DNA of 63,951 bases, filler included, from Fonticula-like sp. SCN 57-25 (taxonomy: Eukaryota): the NCBI GenBank assembly GCA_001724245.1. It is 4 parts of 4 records of this genome, joined end to end, with 100 filler letters (N's around TTAATTAATTAA, not from the genome) between each part and the next. Parts side by side here need not be neighbours in the genome. Positions count along the whole stretch, not along the records: positions 1 to 16,222 come from MEDX01000125.1; 3 more parts are not named here. One strand, written 5' to 3'. Below the pieces are notes generated by a model. It had not been told where the DNA came from. It saw only the letters and a program-made list of their open reading frames with translations, and searched no databases. Every line of letters begins with the position of its first letter. The stretch's first letter is position 1. Positions 4,188 to 47,767 of the stretch are shown here, in pieces. Both the position numbers and the translations under genes were made by a program.

Positions 4188-4949
4188 ATGGAAGGTGGTC
4201 CCGAGCGGGCGTTGGCATCGTCGTTCAAGGCCGCGGCCAACTCGCTCACGCAGCTCTACAAGGTACGCGAGCGTCAGCATGACTAGCGGGTTTAGTAACG
4301 CATCGCTGTGAATAGGAGAGCCTCGCTGCCCAGAAGCAGTCCTATTTATTGGGATATCAAGCAGCGCTCAATGATGTCGGCAAGCTTCTCGCCACGCCGG
4401 GCGCAACAAGCGACGATCTGCGCAAAGCCGTCGAGCTCAAGCTCGCTGAGCTTCACACAATATTGAACCCACCGCAGCAGCAGCAGCAGCAAAACCATTC
4501 AACACAGCAGCATCAGCAGCACCAAGAAGCCCAAGTATTACATCAGCAACACGTGCAGCACCAGACGCAGGCTCCGCTGAACCACCAAGATCCGGGGAGT
4601 ACGGGTCAGCCGTCGACCCCCCAAACCAGCTCCAGTACCGAGTCAATGGTATGTCTCTCATGATCGTTTTCATTTTCTCATTGGGTTGTATTAGGCGCCG
4701 TTTGACCCATTCGCTGGCCAGTCTCAGCTGAACCCGCCGAGCATGCCCGCGGCGATGCCGTTCCCCTCTGACGTTGGCTATATCCCGTGGGGCGTTGCAT
4801 CTCACTCGAACACGACATCACCAAATTCGGGCCAGAAGCGCACACGACATAGTCGTGACTATGGCGTCCAGGAATTCGGACTTTTTGGCTTTGACGGTAA
4901 TATCAAGCGCTCGCGAAACGGCCCCAACAGTGATGGCTTTATGAGCTAA
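4188..4949 (+). CDS. HAPSTR1/C16orf72-like protein with Q/H-rich region (spliced)
   Basis: SFKAAANSLTQLYK|ES...GYQAAL helical motif of this family. GTACGC intron begins at 4263. Confidence 0.7.
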
Positions 4950-5197: not shown

Positions 5198-8100
5198 ATG
5201 GCGACATTGGACGTGCGTGATAGCCAAAAGCTATACTTTTGTATTCGGATGGCTCAGCCCTGCCTTTTACGTTGCTTGCTTACACTTTTTCCGTGTTTTA
5301 TCAGCTTGCCCCAGGAAGCCTGGTGTGGGTCGCACACGATAAGGCCAAGTCCGACTTTGTTGACGCGACCGTCGTTGGCTCGGCGGCGAACACCGTAGAG
5401 GTGCAGCTGATCGGCAATGATGTACGGGCTTTGGCCATTGTTTCTCGGTTTTCTAATAAAATATGTGCAGGAGCTATTGAAAGTGCCGCGTGCCAATGTC
5501 AAGGTGATGCACGTGTCGTCGAGGGATGGCGTGGCCGACATGACCCATCTTGCCGATCTCTCGGAAGGATCGCTGCTGCGTAATCTGCGCCTCCGCTACG
5601 AAAAGGACACCATCTACGTGCGTAGGACACATTAACATGAGCTTTTGTCTAACTGGCGGGTGCAATAGACATACACTGGCACGATCTTGGTGGCCGTGAA
5701 CCCGTACAAGTCGGTCCCGATCTACGGGCAGAGCATCGTCAACAAGTACACCAAAGACAAGCTCGGCGTTCTCCCGCCGCACATTTTTGCCGTGGCGAAT
5801 GACGCGTACGAGTCTCTGATGCGGCAGCCCACCAAGCCCCGCGCGATTCTTATCAGGTACGCCCCTCGTACCCCTTTTACCGGCCCGTTAACATTCTGTT
5901 TGCAGTGGCGAGTCGGGCGCCGGCAAGACGGAATCGACCAAGCTAATTTTGAATCATTTGACGCACTTGTCGGGCGCGCACTCGCACATTGAACAAATTT
6001 TGGTCGAGTCGTCGCCTATTCTAGAGGCATTTGGAAACGCTCGCACCTCGATCAACGACAACTCGAGTCGTTTCGTACGCATCAGCCTCCCCTTTTTAGC
6101 CATGCCGTGCTCGGTTCTTACCGGTGTTATTTCAGGGTAAATACATGGAAGTATTCTTCTCGCCTTCGGGAAAGATTATTGGTGGCCGCATTTCGGAATG
6201 TACGCTTATTTCTCTTGTCCCTTATTTTTTTTGGGTTTCTGTGGGCAACACGAAGGCAGATATCTATAGTCACGAGGTTCTGTTGATACTTTTGCCCTAT
6301 ATTCATATCTCACTTGTGAGAGCCGATGGCATATCACCGCGGCTTGCATAGTCCTGCAGCCGTCGGTACTACACCGCCGGACAACCCTTTTTCTCTTTAC
6401 ACTTCCTCTTCTCTCCACTAACACGCGTGCCCAGATTTGCTTGAAAAGACGCGCATCGTCAAGCAGCCCAAGGTTGATCGCAATTACCACATTTTCTACG
6501 AGTTGCTCCACGGCGCGCCCGATGCGCTCAAGACGCAGCTCAAGCTCAAGACGCCAAAGGACTACGTGTACCTGAGCCAGAGCAACCTCACCATTGTCGC
6601 GCCGGCCGACGACGCCAAGGCGTTCAAGAACGTTTCGGTACGCTCGCGCCTTTCGTTTGTGGTCATATCTAACACCCTCGACTAGTCTGCGATGCTGGTC
6701 AACGGCTTTTCAGAGGAGGAGCAGCTCGATATTTTCCGCATTGTGGCCGCCGTGCTTCATCTCGGCAACGTCACCTACACGGTGGACGACAAGGACAACA
6801 TTTCGATTGGCAACCAGCAAGGTACCGTCTCGCATGCTATTTTATGCTAGTGCCTAACGCGGCTACCCCAGATCTTGCATTTATTGCGAGCCTGCTGTCT
6901 GTGCCGGCCGACCAGTTGGAGCGCGCGCTGACCTTTACCCGCATCAAGACGGGCAAGGAGTACGTGGAGAAGAAGAATACGGTTGTGCAGGCCGAGAGCA
7001 CGCGCGAGACGCTCGCCAAGACGCTCTACACGCGCCTCTTCCGCCACATCGTGTCCAGCATCAACAATGCCATGGCGCTGCGCCGGTCCAAGCTCGAGGA
7101 GGAGTATGGCGAGACGAACGAGGATTCGGGCCAGCCTTCGGTCGGCGTGCTCGATATTTTTGGCTTTGAGGTGGTCGAGGTGCGCTGCTAGGCTAATTTT
7201 TTGATACGGGAGATTAACACGAATGTTTTCGCCGTGTGTAGAACAATAGCTTTGAGCAGTTTTGCATCAACCTGGCCAACGAGACTCTGCAGTCCTACTT
7301 TAACGAGCACATTTTCCGCATGGAGCAGGAGGAGTACGCGCGCGAGAATATCACGTGGGAGCGCATCACGTACTCTGACAACGAGACGTGCCTCAACCTG
7401 CTCTACAAGGTGCGTGGAGATACCCCTGTTGCTTGTAGCTGACACACTAGCGCAGGACAAGCTTTCCCTTCTCAGTCTTCTTGACGAGGAGAGCACGTTC
7501 CCTTCTGCCACGGACGACACGCTCCTGCAAAAGTTTGTCGACAACGTGGGCACGAGCCCCGCGTTCTCAAAGTCGCAGAGCAAGAGCAAGGACTTTACCG
7601 TGGTTCACTACGCCGGCAGGGTCACGTACGGCACCGTCGGCTTTTTGGAGAAGAACCAGGACGCGCTCACCGACTCGCTCGTCTCCCTCTTCAACACCTG
7701 CACGAGCACGTTCATTACCAACTGGTTTGCGCGCAACGACGCGGCCGAGGCTGCGGCGTCGCGCGGCACGCTTAGGCGCGCCAACAAGCCGCCGACCGTC
7801 GGCGGGCAGTTCAAGGTGCGTGATTTTCTTTACTCGCACCTTTTGCTTACATATTTGCTTTTCAGGACTCGCTTGGCGAGCTGATGAAGACGCTTGAGCG
7901 CAGCGAGCCGTACTTTGTTCGCTGCATCAAGCCGAATGCCAACAAGGTGGCGAACCGCTTTGACGCGAGCATTGTCCTTTCGCAGCTGCGCTACACCGGC
8001 ATGCTCGAGACCATCCGCATTCGCAGCCTCGGCTACGCGCTTCGCCAGACGTTTGACGAGTTTTACGGGCGCTACTACATTGTCAAGCGCGGCAACATGT

Positions 8101-11100
8101 CCGATCTGCGGACCTCTTGCACGAGCATTCTCGAGTCCCTGCGCCTGACATCCAAGGACTACCAAATCGGCAAAACGATGGTGTTTGTGCGCAACGATGC
8201 GTCCAGGCAGCTCGAGCACCGCCGCTCCATCGCCGTTAATAGTGCTGGGCGCAAGATCGCGACCTTCCTCAAAATGGTCATTCAGCGCAAGCAGTACCTC
8301 GCAACGCGCAAGGCCGCCATTCGCATCCAGTCGGTCATCCGCGGCGCGCTCTCCCGCTTCCACTACCAGTACACGCGCGAGTGCGTCCTGGACATTCAGC
8401 GCATGTACCGCGGTCATCTCGCCCGCCGTCGCTTGCGCGAGATCAGGCAGGCGGTGCCGCGCGTCGTCAGCGGTACGACCACGCCGCTCCCCCCTCTATG
8501 ATCGGCTCACCTGACTTTTTTGTAGCTTTCCGCCGCCGTGCGAGCCGCCTCATTCTGCTCGAGCGCAAGATCACGTTTGACGCGACGCACGAGCAGCGCG
8601 CCAAGGAGGAGGCCGCCCGTGCCACCGAGGGCGGCAGCGGGGACGGGACGGATCGCCTGAAGCGCCAGGTCGAGCTTGCCGAGAACCCTGGGTTCAAAAT
8701 CATTGGCCTGGCTCAGGAGCTGGAGGCGGAAGGAAAGAGCGCGCTCGACATCTTTGACCCGGAGAACGCGTTTGCGTTTGTCAAGTTTGTCTCTACGTAC
8801 TTTAGGGCGGGCAGCACCGCGTCATACGTCGATGTGCGTGCTCGCTTTTGAATCTGCTTGTACTCACCCGTAATGGCTAGACACCGCTGCAGAACCCGCT
8901 TCTTGCAAAGATGACGCCGCTTGAGGAGACGTATGCGCTGCAGTTGAGCTCACGTACGGGACATTTGTGCCTTTTTCGCGCTTTGCTAACGTCGCATAGT
9001 TGTCCGCTCTTTTATGTCTTCGATGGAGAACGGCCGCTTTGAGGAGAGCCGTAACACGCTGCAGACCATGGTCGACGTCGTCGGCCGGTCGCAGAAGCTT
9101 TCTGACGAGCTCCTTTGCCTAGTGATCAAGCAGACAAACTACAACCCGTCAAAGTACGCTGTTCATTTGCCTTTAAAATGCTGTGCTGACACGCGGTTCC
9201 CAAGGTATAACGCGCTTGCTGGCTGGCAGCTGCTGGCTCTCCTGCTCCCTGTCTTCCCGCCGTCCGAGAACCTCAGCAACTATGTCAGGAACTACATTGT
9301 GACGCGCGGTGTGAACGGCTACGCGTCGTACTGCGAGTCGATCCTGCTCCATGCGCTTACCTCTGGCCGCCGCCGGCAGTACGCCCGTCGTCTTTGCTTC
9401 TCGCGGCCATGCTAACTTTGCCTTTTCAGATCGCCGACGCAGCTCGAGTGCGATGCGGTGACCGACCGCCGCAAGATCAACCTGCAGGTCCGCGCCGTGG
9501 ACCGCGCCGAGCCTGTTACATTTGAGGTGGACGGCGCGCTGCTCACGAGCGACCTCGTACGTGAGGTGACCGAGATCCTCGGGCTCCCGCACATCGCCGG
9601 CTATGGCATCGAGCTGAACCGTGCGTGTTTTTACTTTTGTTTCTTATGACTGAATGGCCGCTTGCAGACAACCTGATGTCGGAGGACTCGCACGTGTTTG
9701 ACGCCATCCGCGTTGCCGAGAAGAGCGGCGCGCCCGTCGTGCTCGCCTTCCGCCGCGCGCACCTTCACCCGGAAGCCAAGTGCGACGACGAGGCATGCCA
9801 TTCGTACACCATCGCGCAGATCCGCACGGACGTGCTCAGCAGCTTTGTCGACGTCCCGCTCAAGGACGCGCTGACGTTGGTGGCGCTCCAGTTCCTCCTC
9901 TCGGGCGCCCTCCCCGAGCGGCTGAGCGACCTCTCGCTCGCGAGCGAGCTGCCGACGGCGCTGTACGAGCGCAACGAAAAGCTGGCCATGATCAGCGACC
10001 TGCGCGAGATCTTTGACGCCCTGTTTGCCGAGCACCTCTCGTCGCCCGAGCTCCGCAACCGCTTCATCAAGGTTGCCCAAGGCTGGCCGCTCTACTTTGG
10101 CCATGTGTTCAAGGCCAAGCAGCTGGACGGCACGCCGCTGTCCAAGACGACGACCGAGCACTATTTCCTCGTCAACGTGCTGGGCCTGGAGGCCTTCCGC
10201 ATGTCAGAGGGCGGTCGCCGTGTCATTCTCGGCACATTCACGTACAACGAAATCACGGACCTTGTCACCAAGGGCGATATTCTGACCGTGTCCGTTGCCG
10301 GGCGCGCGAGCTCGTTCGAGTGCGATGCGTCGACGATCAAGACGCTCATCAACGAGTACATGGTCCACCTCATGTCGCAGGCGACTGTTTGCGTGGCCGT
10401 CAGCGACCACCAGGTAAGCGACGCCGACCTCCTCAGCTTTACCAAGGGCTCGCTCATCCACATCATCCGCGAGGGCGAGAGCTCGGACGGGTGGGGCAAG
10501 GGCGAGTTTAATGGACAGGTGGGCCAGTTCCCGTGGAACCGCGTGGCGCCCCTCGTGGGCCAGACGCAGCCGTCGACCAAGGAGGCGCTCGCGTTCCAAA
10601 TCCTGCTCCGCTCCTCCTCGCATCTCTCCCGCAGCGAGCTCATGAGCGTGCTGGACCCGTCACGGCCCTCGCACGCGCAGCGCGGCTCCGACTCGTCGAT
10701 GGGCAGCTTTGCGTCCGACTCGTCGTCGGCCAAGGCTCTGCCGCCGATCAGCGAGGCGGAGGTCGCTCCGCCCGCCGCTGCCGGCCCCGCTGCGCTGGAC
10801 GAGCGGTTCAACTTTTACGAGTACGCCCGCAAGTACTTTGCGGTGCCCAAGCGGTCCAAGGGGACGCTCACGTCGCGGATTCTCGGCCGGAACGGGACAC
10901 TGCGCGGGAAGCGCGGCTCGATCATGATGTCGGCGTCGGGCACGCTGCGCGCCGTGGACCCGCAGGCCATCATTGCTCTGAGCACCAGCAAGCTGGACGC
11001 CAAGATTGGGCCCGACGAGATCCTGCCCGAGGAGGTGTGCTTCTCGGCCGAGGCGCTCACCAAGCCGCTTCTTCGCGCCACCGAGGGCAAGAAGCACGCC

Positions 11101-12491
11101 AAGCTGGCGCTGTCGCTCAACCAGGCCATCTTGCGCTGCATGGGCGACTACCCTAGCAAGCGCGACTGGAAGGAGCACGCGGGCGCCATCATCGAAGAAT
11201 CCATCGAGACGCCCGAGCTCCGCGACGAGATGTTTGCGCAAATCATCAGGCAGCTCATCAACAACCGCCGCCGCGACTCGTGCGAGCGCGGGTGGTGGCT
11301 GCTCAGCCTCGCCGTGGGCTGCGTGTTCCCGTCGCCGACGCTGCAGCCTTTCCTGCACCAATTTTTGCTGCAGACGGCCGCGCGGACGCCCGTGTACAAG
11401 GAGGTTGCGCTCTCGTGCGCCGCTCGCCTGGACCGCACGCGCGGCAACGGCATGCGCCGCCATCCGCCCATCCAGGCCGAGTTTGACGGCGTCACGTCCA
11501 ACATCCTGCTGGCCATCAAGGTGTACTTCCCCGACGACTCGTCGCGCTCGTTCGCGGTGGACAGCGGGACGCTCGCCGGTGAGCTCATCCGCAAGATCGT
11601 CAAGAAGCTCGACAGCGAGATGCACTACTTCCAGGGCTGCGCGCTCTACCTCGTTGCCGACGCGTACCAGATCTGCATCCCGCACAAGATGCACCTGTTT
11701 GATGCCATGTCCGAGGCCGCGATGACGCCGCAGACGTGCAAGGTGTACTTTAAGAAGAAGATCTGGCTCGGGACCGAGGGCACGTCGTCGGACCCGCTCA
11801 ACAACCTGCTCTACTACCAGTTCCTGCCGGGCTACCTCCATGGCATGGTGTCGTGCAATTCGCCCAGCACGGAGGAGCGCCTCAAGCAGGTCACCTACCT
11901 CGCGGCCCTGCAGTACAAGGCCAACGGCGACGACCAGCGCAAGAGCAGCAGCCATTCGTACGCGCTTTGTGTATTTTACGTGTTTTTTACTTACGTATTG
12001 CTTCCAGCGACCTCTTCAAGACGTATATTCCTGCAAAGGAGTACGGCCTTCGCTCGCCGGACGAGTGGACCAAGGCCGTCTTGTCGACGTACACGGCAGA
12101 GATTAGCGGCAAGACGCCGGCGCAGGCCAAGGCGCTCTGCATCGAGCTCGTGAACAAGTGGCCCTTCCACGGGTCGTCCTTCTTCTCGGTCAAGCAGACA
12201 TTCAACCCGTCGCATCCCGAGAACGCCACGCTGGCCATCAACGTGCGCGGCATTTTCATCCTGCACCCGACCACGTCCGTCCCGCTGCTGTCGATCAAGA
12301 TCGGCGAGATCGCCACGTGGACAAGTGGGCCGCGCTTCTTTAGCATCAAGGTGCACGACCTCCTCGCCGGCGAAAAGTATACTTTTACTACGTCGTCTGG
12401 CGAAGAGATCGCAGACCTGCTGGAGGAGTACATCCATGCACTCGTCGAGGCCAAGAAGGCTGTCGAAGGATCGCCGGTTCCCAAAAGGTAA
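5198..12491 (+). CDS. Unconventional MyTH4-FERM myosin (motor, IQ, MyTH4-FERM, SH3, MyTH4-FERM; myosin VII/22-like), multi-exon
   Basis: VAVNPYK, P-loop [39 protein letters not shown] motifs, SH3 (LLSFTKG...GWGKG...GQFP) and MyTH4 ([13 protein letters not shown]...GWWLL). Many short GT-AG introns. Confidence 0.95.
6241..6386 (+). ncRNA. Intronic box H/ACA (sca)RNA, predicted guide for U2 snRNA psi41 and psi39 (SCARNA4/ACA26-like)
   Basis: Two hairpins inside the unusually long 236-nt myosin intron 6200-6435. Pocket strands GATACT (6285-6290) and TACTACAC (6367-6374) are complementary to U2 GUGUAGUAUC. ATA (6299) and ACA (6381) each lie 14 nt after the pocket start. Confidence 0.75.
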
Positions 12492-12816
12492 CCGGGCTTC
12501 TTCTTAGTAGTTTTTTGAACACCCTGTATTCATTTCTTTCGCTTTTTATTTGTGATTATATTTTGATTATCTCTACCATATTTTATATAATGCATGCCCG
12601 CCCCTATCGCACCTTGGCCACTTTCGCCAAAAACTGCATGCAATCCGGATCGGGGTTCGATCGCGATTCAAATTTGTAATAATCCCGATGTTGACCCGGG
12701 ATAATGAAAAATCAGACACTCGGGACCGGGTTTTATTCAGCGGTCCGGATCTATTTGTGCAAGTTTATAAAAGTGGCCGTCGGGTAGCGCGTGCACATTA
12801 GATTTCCCTCGACACG

Positions 12817-43500: not shown

Positions 43501-46500
43501 AGCAGGCCAGCAGCGGCGTCCCGCACAAGCTCAGCTTCGACGATGAGCCACGGGTCCTTGGCGGCGGCCGCTGAAGATGACGTCGCGCGCCCGGCGATGC
43601 CGCCGAATGGCAGCGCCTCGCGAGCGGCAGACGCCACCTCCACGGCGTACGCGTGCGACATGCCAAATGAACCGCATGACAAGTACAGCGACCTGCTTGT
43701 TGCCGACTCTGCCAGCGCGCAGTGAACGCCATGTAGACGCGCAGCATACGCAGTCATCACGCCACCTGACGGAACATACACATACGCGGCGATCTGTGCG
43801 GCGGAAACGCTCAGCTCGGTTGACGCGGGAGTGATGGAGGCGGCTCGTGCACCGCCGTCTCGAGCAATGTCAGTATTCGGGTTATGCGAGACGTCGGTGG
43901 TCACGGGCTCTCGCTTCGTAAAGGACGGTATCATTGCGTTTATGGCAACGAGAAGATTCATTGCGTCAATGTCAACACCGGCAACGACACGACCCACTCG
44001 CACACCGACGCCGTAAACGACGGGCGCCGCATCACCTTCTGATATCAAAGTTGTAAGCGAATGCAAAGCGACCATAATAGTTTGTGCGCACGGAGCGTGG
44101 AAGACGACTGCCGCGCCGATCCCCATTGCGCATCCAGGCGGTCGACGCAAAGCAGCGGGAGGCGGTGCAAGCCAGAGGCCGCGGCCGCGTGCTTGTCGCC
44201 TGACATAAGATAGTGGATGGGAGCGTAGCCGGGCGCGGGCTTCAACGAGGCGGCGCACTCGAGCCCCTCAAGCACACCAAAGTGCGCCTTGAATGTGCGC
44301 GAGCGCTGATACTGCGGAAACTGGGAAAAATGACAGGGCATATTGATCAACGTGGCGGTTTCGCAGGCATCTTTTGGACAAAAAATGACGGTAAGACAAA
44401 TATAACTAAATGGAGGGAGAGAGGGCGTACTGCTCAAGTCAGCAACTGTGTGCTCTGGCCGCACACTTACGACTGGGAGCCTGACGAGCATGTGGGCGCA
44501 GTGCGCCAAACGAGCGGGGCGCGGCGACGAGGGCGGCGCTGCTGGAAATGGCGCGACCGCCGCTGACTGGCTGCTGTCCGCGTGCGAGTGTTCAGGGGAC
44601 AGGTAGAGGCGGCACGCGTCAATAGATATCAGCGTGTGAGGCGCCAAAAGGGACCGCGGGGGCTCTGGCGGCGATCGTAAAGGCAAAACTGCCGCTGGCG
44701 GCTGGGGGGGTCCGCGCATATCCACCGAAAATGACAGACCAGAGTCACTTTTCGTCGCTGCCGATGACTGTGTAGCAGTGTCATGTGGCTCACTCTGATG
44801 TGGAACGAGTACCGCAGCCGCGTCAGTGCCATGCTCCTGCGGAATCATATGTAAACATAAACGAAAGAAAAGGAATAAAGCGCACAGGCTCGCATAACCA
44901 TGCCGCCACGACAGGGTCAAAAGAGGCCTCCAAAGCAGCGCCGCTAACCACGAGGACGTCCATGAAATCATTGAGTGCGAGCAGGTAGAGCGGGTCGTTG
45001 TTGTTTCGTTTCCTTGGTGTTCTCCGCTGCCGCTGAAACACAAACGCATTTTCCCGCTTGTTCTGCTGCACGCCGTTAGCCATAGACAGGAACGATTGAT
45101 GTGCGCACCTGAGAAGACGACAATGGTGTTCGCAAAAAGGTGAGCTCGCCGCGCGATGCGCACACAGCGCACGAGGCGATATTGGTGATCGAGCCGCGCG
45201 CAGAGCCGAGCGCTACCTGAAGACAGGTGCCGACAATGTGTGTCTTTGAAATCACGCGCAGGTTTGTCAGCTCTATCCTGCATCTCGCCTCGTCATTGAC
45301 GCCGTCGTCGCTGTTAACGGTGCCGTGCCATGATGACGTCTGGTTGAGGGCGCTCCACCCGTCGACAATCCTGATCATGTCGGCAATCTGCGCGCGGCTC
45401 GCGTGCATCGTGCACTCGGCTACATCGACTTCTGCTTGCCCGAGCGGCGCCGCCGCCGCCCACATAATCCCGCCAAACGATGTCACGCGACCGTCCACAT
45501 ACCGCACGGCTGCATCGAAAGGGTCGCCGAGCAGAGCCAAACTCGCCACATCGCCGCGCCACGACATAGTGCCCAGAGCAACGGCGGCTCCATGAACATT
45601 AATCTTGTAGTGATCATACAAAAGAGGCGCCCAGGGAGGGAGCCGCTCCATGCCAGACATGCCCAGCGGCAGCTCGTCGCTTACCGAAACGGAGCTGATC
45701 CGAGCGAGCAGTGCAGGAAATAACCTACACCAAGCTGTTAGCCAATGCACCGTGAGAGCGCTGGTAAACAGGCCGTACGTGGTGGTCGGCTCGAATGGCT
45801 CACAGGAAGGAATGACGACATCAAGCCCATGAAGACGGATATTCATCTTGCGGGCCCCGTCACCCAACTCACTAAGGCGCGCAAGCATCGCGTCATCGGA
45901 CGCAAGATGAAGAGACTCCTTGTCCACAGCCGCCACAAGCGCCGCGTAAAACGGCAAGTGCGGCCCGGCAAAGTCGACCGCCGTCAGCGCAAACACCTTG
46001 CTCAGGGTGAGCCGCGCGGCGCCCACCGTCGCGTCAATGCGACGCCCCGTCGACTCATCACTACGCGCGATCAGTGCCCACGTGGTAACGTCAAAAGTCG
46101 CGCTGCGGTGCACGGCAGCCCACACGTTGCACGGCCAACCCCCCGTCAGCGCCCCACGCACGCTCCCGCAGCCCGACGCACCGGCCGTAAATACGGGGCG
46201 AAAATGAACCTTGTTCTCGTCCACGTGGACACGCGCGCCGTGCTCAACGGCCATGTGGTGAACCATGGCGTATGCGGACTGCTTCTGGTTGCGCTGCTGC
46301 TGATCGCCACCGCCAGTGTCGCTCGCAAATGCCGCGTCTTCCAAGACGACCCTGATACAGGGAACGCACATGATGCGGCGCAGGCGGCGCATCGCCACCT
46401 GGCGGTACCGCGTGAGCTGCAGCGTGACACGCGGTGCTGTGACGAGAAGAGCAAGCCTTGTGGCGGTCGGCGGAAGCGCCACCGGCGTCGGCGTTGGCGT

Positions 46501-47767
46501 CGGCACGTCGGCGCCTGCAAAGCTACCGAGCCAAGCGGACCATGAGAGAGGGGGTGGCGACTCTGGTGACGGCGACGGCGGCGGCTCAGAATGCGGAGTG
46601 GCAGCGGAGGCTGTAGTGTCGGCAGATGTTGCAATGATGCTGCGCCGGGCGACGAGGGCTTGGAGGGCGCGAAAGATAAGAGAGTGCTGCATGTCACTCA
46701 TCGAGATAACAAGTTCGGGGAGTGATACGTGGATGCTGCGATATGAATTTGCTACGGAATACGGTGATGTTGATGCGGGTGCGGCATTGTTGGTTTCCGG
46801 CGGTTGCTTTGGTGCTCGACGCATTGCTTCTAAAGGTATTGGTGATGATGCCGAGACCTCTTGAGGTATTCCTGCTGATGCGGATGTCGATGTGGATGCT
46901 AAATATGATGATGCACCCTCGCCGAGGTCTGTACCTGCAGCCACGGCTACACTGGCGGACGTTTCTAATAACGAAATGTCGCTGTCTGCCGTACATATAC
47001 GCACACCAAAGGAATATTTGTAAATGAGTGGATCTTGAAAGGCGACGAGCCGGCCGTCAGCCGCGCTATGGTCCACGCACAGCGTTAGCTCGCTGATGTC
47101 GAGCGTGCGGTTTCGTTGCCGGTGAGCGCCAACGTATCCTGTCACCGCCGGCCGCCAGGCAGCGTCCGCCGACGCCGAAACCACAGACTTGCATGACAGC
47201 GACACCACAGCGTCGCCGTCCGCGTACTTGACGACAACATTGTGGATCTCGAATCGAACATTGTTGAGCACCATCGGCAAAAGACCCATTTCGGCAGAGC
47301 CGGTAGCAGGCGCTAGAGCAGCGGGCGCAGTAGAAGACAAAGGGGCAGCGGTGGCCGTCTTTGGACGACTCGATGCGCCTTCGGGAGCAAGGACGATCTC
47401 CAAAAGGCTCAAGGAGACCACGACGGGATCGCGCGTGAGCGACGTCCAAGGGATGCGGACGCGCGCCTCGTGAACACGGCCACTAACAACATCCACGGGA
47501 AGATCAAGGTCACGCTTCACGGCTAAATAGTTTCAAAAAGCGCGAAAGTGAGCAGCGCGACACAGGCGGGTCTTACCGAGGGCGCGCACCGTCCTGGCGC
47601 AGCTCGAGGTTCCGCAAAACGAGATCCCCGCCTATTGCATCCCAGTTAAAAACGGCAATTAACAAAAGAAACGCACCCCATAAGGACAGCTCCAAATCCT
47701 CTGGCCGAATGTTCTTTAGATACTCGCTCGCATAGTACTGCAGCAGCGGCCGTAGTAGGGCCTCCAT
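37517..47767 (-). CDS. VPS13B: VPS13B-like bridge lipid-transfer protein (multi-exon)
   Basis: Chorein-N YLKNIRPEDLELSLWG|GDLVLRNLEL...GRVHEARVRIPWTSL of VPS13B type. C-terminal ATG_C-like glycine-rich helices (GAVVKPASGLLD). Confidence 0.85.

Follow-up and report, generated by a model that had tools for sequence, protein, structure and literature searches.

A candidate two-hairpin H/ACA RNA in a myosin intron of a Fonticula-like eukaryote, with pockets that frame U41 and U39 of U2 snRNA

Three animal RNAs are described as guiding two neighboring uridines of U2 snRNA from a pair of hairpins: SCARNA15/ACA45 of non-eutherian vertebrates, Drosophila scaRNA:PsiU2-38.40.42 and C. elegans C50C3.14 each direct their 5′ pocket to the U41 equivalent and their 3′ pocket to the U39 equivalent (PMC5733568, in the excerpt used here). 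In the same excerpt, SCARNA4 of human and Xenopus has experimental verification for psi41 only, not psi39; the 5′ pocket of the human RNA was verified for psi41 in yeast, and its predicted psi39 pocket was inactive. Yeast snR81 directs its 5′ pocket to psi42 of U2, which is the U41 equivalent, and its 3′ pocket to psi1051 of 25S rRNA (PMC6049503, also an excerpt), and a fungal survey traced the snR81 family in Saccharomyces only (PMC5824354). For plants, a review calls it unknown if guides have any part in snRNA pseudouridylation (PMC9241379). Computational guide assignments, moreover, often fail experimental tests (PMC5733568, in the excerpt). The original prediction for the locus described here had named SCARNA4 as guide of both psi39 and psi41, of which the excerpted literature bears out the psi41 half and not the psi39 half; its mention of snR81 as guide of the psi41 equivalent agrees with the U2 psi42 assignment (PMC6049503, excerpt). 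Among Creative Commons PMC papers and bioRxiv preprints, we found no psi41/psi39 U2 guide outside the groups of the known guides.

We analyzed a 63,951-nt stretch of DNA, filler included (hereafter the window), from Fonticula-like sp. SCN 57-25, in which an intron of a myosin gene contains a candidate of this kind. We consider it fairly probable that the intron yields a real H/ACA guide for U2. The features of the locus are the following.

6200–6434, plus strand: host intron of the myosin gene, from GT 6200 to AG 6434, 235 nt
6240–6386, plus strand: predicted mature H/ACA RNA of about 147 nt, both ends predicted
6243–6297, plus strand: hairpin 1, lower stem 6243–6248/6292–6297, upper stem 6255–6284
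6249–6254, plus strand: hairpin 1 5′ pocket CACGAA, in which GAA 6252–6254 pairs with U43-U44-C45 of U2 (3 bp)
6266–6271, plus strand: hairpin 1 apical-loop motif AUAGUC (fold and sequence)
6285–6291, plus strand: hairpin 1 3′ pocket GAUACUU, in which GAUACU 6285–6290 pairs with A35–C40 of U2 (6 bp)
6299–6304, plus strand: H-box-like AUAUUC with an ANA core and a sixth base C, not A, 14 nt past the upper stem
6308–6321, plus strand: small 5-bp hairpin in the hinge (minimum-free-energy fold)
6323–6380, plus strand: hairpin 2, lower stem 6323–6329/6374–6380, upper stem 6337–6366
6330–6336, plus strand: hairpin 2 5′ pocket CAUAUCA, in which only CA 6335–6336 pairs, with U41-G42 of U2 (2 bp)
6348–6353, plus strand: hairpin 2 apical-loop motif AUAGUC (fold and sequence)
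6367–6374, plus strand: hairpin 2 3′ pocket UACUACAC, pairing with G31–A38 of U2 (8 bp)
6381–6383, plus strand: box ACA, 14 nt past the upper stem of hairpin 2 and right after its lower stem
6418–6422, plus strand: host-intron CUAAC resembling a branch site, 11 nt upstream of AG 6433–6434

The host intron is set apart by its length. Splicing the 13 introns out of the myosin stretch 5471–9560 gives a single open frame of 1080 codons; over that stretch, where the lengths were checked by splicing, the introns measure 51, 49, 61, 235, 48, 50, 62, 46, 50, 53, 47, 46 and 51 nt, so that 12 of the 13 lie at 46–62 nt and the 235-nt intron is the sole outlier. The contrast with short neighboring introns that had been pointed out beforehand is therefore real. 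The intron had also been located correctly, though as 236 nt ending at 6435; that last position is exonic, the first base after the junction in GAA T|AT TTG, which encodes E-Y-L of the myosin motif YLLEKTR. The 235 nt can be divided into a 147-nt insert and, on its flanks, roughly 88 nt of intron of the ordinary, pyrimidine-rich sort. A blastn search of the intron against the window for a repeat or transposon origin returned itself and short chance matches only.

The minimum-free-energy fold of 6238–6390 is hairpin-hinge-hairpin-tail with both internal loops (the pockets) open, and the constrained stems agree with this architecture; the two hairpins of the original prediction, and its H/ACA-like layout, were thus recovered by folding. 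The stability of the fold is modest: its z-score is −1.89, and 5 of 200 shuffled sequences fold equally well. Hairpin 1 closes with six of six pairs in its lower stem (GGGCAA 6243–6248 with UUGCCC 6292–6297), and its upper stem (GGCAGA 6255–6260 with UCUGUU 6279–6284, two of the pairs being G-U) is weak, at −5.3 kcal/mol; these stems and the GAA + GATACT pocket are as first proposed. Hairpin 2 has six of seven pairs in its lower stem (CCG-A-UGG 6323–6329 with CCG-C-CGG 6374–6380) and an upper stem of −15.2 kcal/mol, and as a hairpin it is strong and GC-rich; C6374 may belong to the lower stem rather than to the 3′ pocket. The predicted 5′ end is where an Rfam alignment begins, at 6240, and the predicted 3′ end, 6386, follows from the usual H/ACA spacing of 3 nt past ACA.

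The distance from upper stem to box is 14 nt in both hairpins, with AUA at 6299 and ACA at 6381 exactly where they had been claimed to lie. Deryusheva and Gall give 15 ± 1 nt as the correct distance from target uridine to box H or ACA (PMC5733568, in the excerpt), and both 14-nt distances, counted from the upper stem, fall inside that range. A pyrimidine tract follows the ACA. The H box had been called imperfect, which it is: AUAUUC fails ANANNA at its sixth base, where C stands for A (the next base, 6305, is A), and the sequence of the hinge, 6298–6322, contains no ANANNA. The hinge is long, at 25 nt, and has a small hairpin of its own.

The U41 and U39 sites lie in or beside the part of U2 that recognizes the branch point. 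Pairing was scored against a U2 motif taken from the original prediction and from general knowledge, which may differ from the U2 of the host; the introns here have branch sites of the CUAAC type, and these do fit a canonical GUAGUA in the host U2. Against this motif, hairpin 1 forms 6 + 3 bp, all nine Watson-Crick, and leaves U41-G42 open with U41 as the target, while hairpin 2 forms 8 + 2 bp, all ten Watson-Crick, and leaves U39-C40 open with U39 as the target. The two pairs flanking the open dinucleotide are intact in each pocket. Both targets originally assigned to this RNA are thus framed according to the H/ACA pairing rule on the quoted U2 motif.

Among the known guides, SCARNA15, the fly PsiU2-38.40.42 and the worm C50C3.14 appear closest to the candidate in layout, and on that comparison they are better analogues than SCARNA4. 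They have the same two-hairpin arrangement of psi41 in the 5′ hairpin and psi39 in the 3′ hairpin, as judged by the base-pairing rule only and from the excerpted source; the likeness is one of layout, and the host of the candidate is a distant eukaryote. They differ from the candidate in that a second configuration lets their 3′ pocket extend to the U37 equivalent as well (excerpted source), and reading the candidate for such a configuration reaching U37, as in SCARNA15, found no fit. SCARNA4/ACA26 agrees with hairpin 1 in the pocket letters GAA and GAUAC and has a similar base to its upper stem, but its own psi39 pocket is inactive (per the excerpt), whereas that of the candidate has eight clean pairs on the 3′ side. 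For yeast snR81, the psi42 pocket appears to be matched by hairpin 1, by pairing, but the 3′ pocket of snR81 reads 25S rRNA, whereas the second pocket of the candidate matches U2 rather than a known rRNA site.

A possible objection is that there is no RNA gene here, just a long intron with two chance hairpins that resemble guide pockets. A rule-based scan of both strands of the window for three U2 targets found exactly two units, both in the myosin intron; they share a strand, follow one another in the right order and are separated by 82 nt. Two runs of 10 Mb of random Markov sequence gave 20 and 21 units, or about 2 per Mb, and not one pair over the 20 Mb; by our own arithmetic, chance would then supply about 4 × 10⁻⁵ pairs per window when the three U2 targets are scanned. 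Admitting every combination of two known pseudouridine sites, whatever the RNA, would raise the rough expectation to about 0.07 pairs per window. A pattern of four motifs, GATAC-N9-ANA-N40-70-TACTACAC-N6-ACA, has a single match in the window, and none of 100 shuffles contains it. A metagenome scan with this pattern returned at least 117 stretches, and among the 117 pattern-bearing matches listed none has both structural units: the psi39 unit lies inside the pattern in two (L013 and L040) and the psi41 unit in none. We conclude that the framing of U41 and U39 in the quoted U2 motif is very unlikely to have arisen by chance. To these figures can be added the status of the intron as single length outlier of 13 and the presence of the same 6-mer in both loops. 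The chance-hairpin explanation draws on the non-canonical H box, the modest z-score, the absence of a significant Rfam match anywhere in the window, the many possible targets that were open to the matching behind the original prediction, and the lack of a homologue in the searches described below; taking both sides together, we regard it as distinctly unlikely. In the metagenome matches listed, the psi39 units of L013 and L040 and four units elsewhere were read as chance, and L013 was unconvincing by eye. An Rfam search of four of the 117 loci (L013, L040, L069 and L034) gave no hits.

A second objection accepts a real intronic H/ACA RNA and gives it other targets: the 5′ hairpin alone might act on U2, with the 3′ hairpin structural or directed for example to rRNA, or U2 might be no substrate at all. 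In vitro work put the requirement for efficient modification at 3 bp or more per side (PMC6800473), and guide-target pairing has a minimum of 8 bp, one-sided anchoring failing (PMC6049503, excerpt). Hairpin 1, at 6 + 3 bp, has at least eight pairs in total and three or more on each side; hairpin 2, at 8 + 2 bp, likewise has at least eight in total, and its 5′ side, with two, falls short of three, which favors the objection. It is favored also by precedent in the excerpted sources, as snR81 joins a U2 pocket to a 25S rRNA pocket (PMC6049503) and the predicted psi39 pocket of human SCARNA4 is inactive (PMC5733568). Against it, the 3′ pocket forms an unbroken run of eight Watson-Crick pairs with U2, placed exactly 14 nt from ACA, and the pairs flanking the open dinucleotide are intact, the psi39 unit recurred inside the pattern in just the two of 117 metagenome matches listed, and two targets 2 nt apart in one RNA are what the known dual guides have (PMC5733568, in the excerpt). 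We hold a different set of targets to be unlikely and prefer the U2 guide reading.

The original prediction went further and called the RNA deeply conserved, related to SCARNA4 and snR81, and it is here that we part from it: the architecture, the distances and the U41 and U39 pockets of a U2 guide hold up, and the deep conservation and homology find no support here. The best Rfam match in 6150–6480 is indeed SCARNA4 (RF00423), as had been anticipated, but its 18.6 bits (E 0.23 when 331 nt were searched) stay below the gathering score, which is 60; it aligns hairpin 1 end to end and skips hairpin 2. Since this score largely restates the pocket match, it is not independent evidence. Over the whole window, no family reached its gathering score and no match had E ≤ 1. 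The Rfam matches given for 6150–6480 do not include snR81; the search keeps the best match per clan, so the absence of SCARNA15 from them is no test of that family. The host gene gave no close relative either. A 210-aa motor/IQ exon query matched 14 proteins, the window's own included; apart from that one, the matches spanning most of the query have 36–40% identity, and those at 47–61% identity span less than half of it. None of the 14 is a close relative, hence no orthologous intron was available, and a myosin tail exon used as query matched only itself. Neither the motor/IQ exon search nor the metagenome pattern matches, at least 117 in number, turned up a relative of either the locus or the RNA, although the rigidity of the pattern means that those matches say nothing on the existence of homologues. 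In a separate Pfam search, ten large ORFs gave one weak VPS13_N match and nothing else.

The hairpins might instead have a role in the host transcript itself or in a different small-RNA pathway, as a splicing-regulatory structure, a U2 decoy or a miRNA-like precursor. Points in favor are the complementarity of UACUACAC to the region of U2 that reads branch sites and the strength of the GC-rich hairpin 2; searched alone against Rfam, hairpin 2 hit no snoRNA family and gave weak rows for miRNA families at E 3–9. Those rows are at chance level, however, and a decoy would account neither for the second pocket nor for the lower stems and the 14-nt distance to the box in both hairpins, while the real branch site, CUAAC, lies elsewhere in the intron, at 6418–6422. 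We judge such roles highly improbable.

If the locus does encode a U2 guide, the RNA would be freed from the spliced intron, and exonucleases would then cut it back as far as the H/ACA proteins bound to it, putatively dyskerin/Cbf5, Nop10, Nhp2 and Gar1. The 5′ hairpin would pair with U2 on either side of the equivalent of vertebrate U41 (6 + 3 bp) and the pseudouridine synthase would convert that uridine; the 3′ hairpin would act alike on the U39 equivalent (8 + 2 bp), and probably with lower efficiency. Acting on an snRNA, the candidate would count functionally as a scaRNA. At present it is an annotation-level prediction and entails no new mechanism. The two-hairpin U2 guide is a known kind of RNA, and a credible one in a poorly sampled eukaryote would extend its distribution; the candidate is moreover a concrete RNA for the established yeast snr81-deletion assay.

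The apical loops carry one more feature, AUAGUC, which had been described as a shared motif resembling the CAB box. The sharing is plain, the motif being in both loops. A 6-mer common to the two loops arose in 5053 of 200 000 shuffles of the apical regions and in 793 of 200 000 when strict loops were used. The CAB box consensus is reported to be UGAG (Richard et al. 2003). AUAG has AG alone in common with it, and AUAGUC is not that consensus. AUAGUC in the two loops may be a localization signal, and a credible dual guide in this eukaryote would supply it as a candidate motif for the targeting of scaRNAs in a new lineage. A broader reading would make the psi41/psi39 dual U2 guide ancient, pre-animal and a survivor in this distant lineage, the homology of hairpin 1 to SCARNA4 true, and AUAGUC a lineage-specific CAB counterpart read by a WDR79/TCAB1-like protein; if so, Cajal-body-type targeting of snRNA guides would occur outside animals, but we find this combination quite doubtful. 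ATAGTC shows no enrichment across the window, with 18 occurrences found versus 16.5 expected, and a 19-nt similarity to the intron at 47726, GCATAGTACTGCAG, differs from the loop motif.

The gene that hosts the predicted RNA is a myosin. Its exons encode the motifs GESGAGKTE and YLLEKTR, and in the tail exon the window's own protein has the Pfam families MyTH4, FERM and SH3.

Host gene features
5471-12500, + strand: host myosin with MyTH4-FERM-SH3 tail
6200-6434, + strand: host intron (GT..AG, 235 nt, read from sequence)
6418-6422, + strand: CUAAC branch site of the host intron

Removal of 13 GT..AG introns (the host intron and 12 others) from 5471-9560 leaves one open frame of 1080 codons. 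In order the introns measure 51, 49, 61, 235, 48, 50, 62, 46, 50, 53, 47, 46 and 51 nt; 12 of the 13 lie within 46-62 nt and the host intron is the sole outlier. The original prediction had this intron running from 6200 to 6435; the start holds, while 6435 is the first exon base, the junction GAA T/AT TTG restoring E-Y-L, so that the intron ends at 6434. Its outer parts (the first 40 and last 48 nt) resemble an ordinary short pyrimidine-rich intron, and the extra part is the middle 147 nt. Splice signals across 5400-9450 (+ strand) are very regular, with donors mostly GTACG or GTGCG, introns of about 46-62 nt, and a CTAAC-like branch motif a few to about 15 nt upstream of AG. CUAAC-type branch sites agree with a canonical GUAGUA in the organism's U2 and say nothing on the flanking letters.

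The minimum-free-energy fold of 6238-6390 has two hairpins with a 25-nt hinge between them (-45 kcal/mol, z = -1.89; 5 of 200 shuffles fold equally well).

Features of the predicted RNA
6243-6248/6292-6297, + strand: hairpin 1 lower stem
6249-6254 and 6285-6291, + strand: hairpin 1 pocket (internal loop) strands, CACGAA and GAUACUU
6255-6284, + strand: hairpin 1 upper stem, -5.3 kcal/mol, two G-U pairs at its base
6266-6271, + strand: AUAGUC in the hairpin 1 apical loop
6299-6304, + strand: AUAUUC at the H-box position
6323-6329/6374-6380, + strand: hairpin 2 lower stem, 6 of 7 pairs
6330-6336 and 6367-6374, + strand: hairpin 2 pocket strands, CAUAUCA and UACUACAC
6348-6353, + strand: AUAGUC in the hairpin 2 apical loop
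6381-6383, + strand: box ACA of hairpin 2

Sequence and fold thus confirm the two-hairpin, H/ACA-like structure that had been noticed in the long myosin intron, with every named element in its predicted place. From upper stem to AUA (hairpin 1) or ACA (hairpin 2) is exactly 14 nt in both, in agreement with the distance of 15 +/- 1 nt that Deryusheva and Gall quote as the rule (PMC5733568). The same authors stress the importance of stem stability, and note that computed guide assignments often fail under experiment (PMC5733568). The upper stem of hairpin 2 is strong (-15.2 kcal/mol). The weaknesses of the RNA are the weak upper stem of hairpin 1, a long hinge with its own 5-bp hairpin, and a non-canonical H box, in which C replaces the last A of the consensus; a search for ANANNA across the hinge found no occurrence. 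The hinge hairpin (6308-6321, + strand, UCUCA/UGAGA) is unusual among H/ACA RNAs. Hairpins in an intron could instead serve the host transcript or have another small-RNA role; beside the matching box distances, we regard this as very improbable.

The 3' pocket strand of an H/ACA guide pairs 5' of the target uridine, and the 5' strand pairs 3' of the next nucleotide. We applied this rule to the U2 motif as quoted in the original prediction (human numbering). In hairpin 1, GAUACU is complementary to A35-C40 and GAA to U43-C45 (6+3 Watson-Crick pairs), leaving the dinucleotide U41-G42 unpaired; in hairpin 2, UACUACAC is complementary to G31-A38 and CA to U41-G42 (8+2 pairs), leaving U39-C40 unpaired. 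Both pockets exceed the 8-bp minimum for guide-target pairing, and the pairs flanking the unpaired dinucleotide are intact in both (PMC6049503). Efficient in vitro modification needs 3 bp per side (PMC6800473); because the 2-bp side of hairpin 2 falls short of this figure, we rate psi41 the firmer assignment and psi39 the weaker. We consider it probable that the intron truly encodes an H/ACA guide, one that would act on the U41 equivalent of U2 and, with less certainty, on the U39 equivalent. An authentic H/ACA RNA whose targets differ in part is an alternative that we think unlikely.

Chance hairpins in a long intron are another possible explanation, to be set against how rarely such units arise. 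A deliberately lenient scanner sought units (hairpin, pocket and box fitting a U2 site) with at least 5 pairs on the 3' strand, at least 2 on the 5' strand and at least 9 in total, ANA 14-16 nt past the upper stem, an upper stem of -5 kcal/mol or better, and a lower stem of 6 pairs in 6-7 positions. On both strands of the window it returned exactly two units, hairpins 1 and 2. First-order Markov sequence (10 Mb each) gave 20 units when intron-trained and 21 when window-trained, or ~2 per Mb, with no pair of units 50-130 nt apart in either set. By our own arithmetic, allowing the three U2 uridines of the motif, the expectation for the window is about 0.26 units and 4e-5 pairs. This figure calls for a look-elsewhere correction: if any two of the ~130 pseudouridine sites known across all RNAs were acceptable, it would rise, by rough scaling, to about 0.07 pairs per window. 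Limiting the choice to two sites close together in a single RNA, which is the case here, returns it to ~1e-3 or less. A second control, the pattern GATAC-N9-ANA-N40-70-TACTACAC-N6-ACA, has one match in the window and none in 100 shuffles. It occurs in at least 117 metagenome stretches; among the 117 matches listed, none has both structural units; a psi39 unit falls within the pattern match in two and a psi41 unit in none. The pocket words alone therefore do not bring the remaining architecture. We judge chance hairpins unlikely, slightly more so than a partly different target set.

One metagenome contig from the pattern scan (L013, about 2240-2330, - strand) carries a unit that could pair with the U39 site by 8+5 bp and has its ACA at a distance of 14 nt; we judged it a chance occurrence, its 'upper stem' being long and weak, with no matching 5' unit and no Rfam match.

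AUAGUC is the only 6-mer common to both hairpins. A common 6-mer arose in 5053 of 200000 shuffles of the apical regions and 793 of 200000 of the strict loops, and AUAGUC is not enriched across the window (18 found, 16.5 expected); its presence in both loops is moderate extra evidence for function. The CAB box consensus is UGAG. The loops had been called CAB-box-like, and the shared motif stands, but the likeness is limited to AG; naming AUAGUC a CAB box exceeds the data, although a CAB-like role is possible. Upstream of the myosin gene, at 4849-4862, ATAGTC (+ strand) is followed three bases on by ATAGTC (- strand), a short palindrome.

The predicted RNA would belong to an already known kind of guide. 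Human SCARNA4 is annotated for psi39 and psi41, yet in yeast human and Xenopus SCARNA4 modified the psi41 equivalent only, the authors judging the psi39 pocket too weak (PMC5733568). The predicted intron RNA has the pocket layout described there for SCARNA15 of most non-eutherian vertebrates, Drosophila scaRNA:PsiU2-38.40.42 and C. elegans C50C3.14, with psi41 in the 5' pocket and psi39 in the 3' pocket (PMC5733568). Yeast snR81 targets U2 psi42 and 25S psi1051 (PMC6049503). A fungal survey traced snR81 within Saccharomyces only (PMC5824354), and according to a plant review it is not known if the pseudouridines of plant snRNAs have guides (PMC9241379).

Rfam placed no family at gathering score in the whole window, and none at E <= 1 window-wide; hairpin 2 searched alone gave nothing relevant. 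In a search of 331 nt SCARNA4, a family anticipated by the original prediction, did head the results, but at 18.6 bits (E 0.23) against a gathering score of 60. For the most part that score repeats the pocket match, and it demonstrates SCARNA4-like geometry, not family membership. Deep homology to SCARNA4 or snR81 is a possibility.

With the window's own protein set aside, hits of the 210-aa motor/IQ exon have 36-40% identity where most of the query is covered, and more identical ones (47-61%) span under half of it. The organism seems to be poorly sampled. Of ten large ORFs of the window searched against Pfam, the one at 45076-47529 (- strand) resembles VPS13_N weakly (29 bits; cut-off 80), and the remaining nine (314-1440 aa) match no family at E <= 1e-5. 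The window as a whole contains 264 N and is 50.6% G+C.
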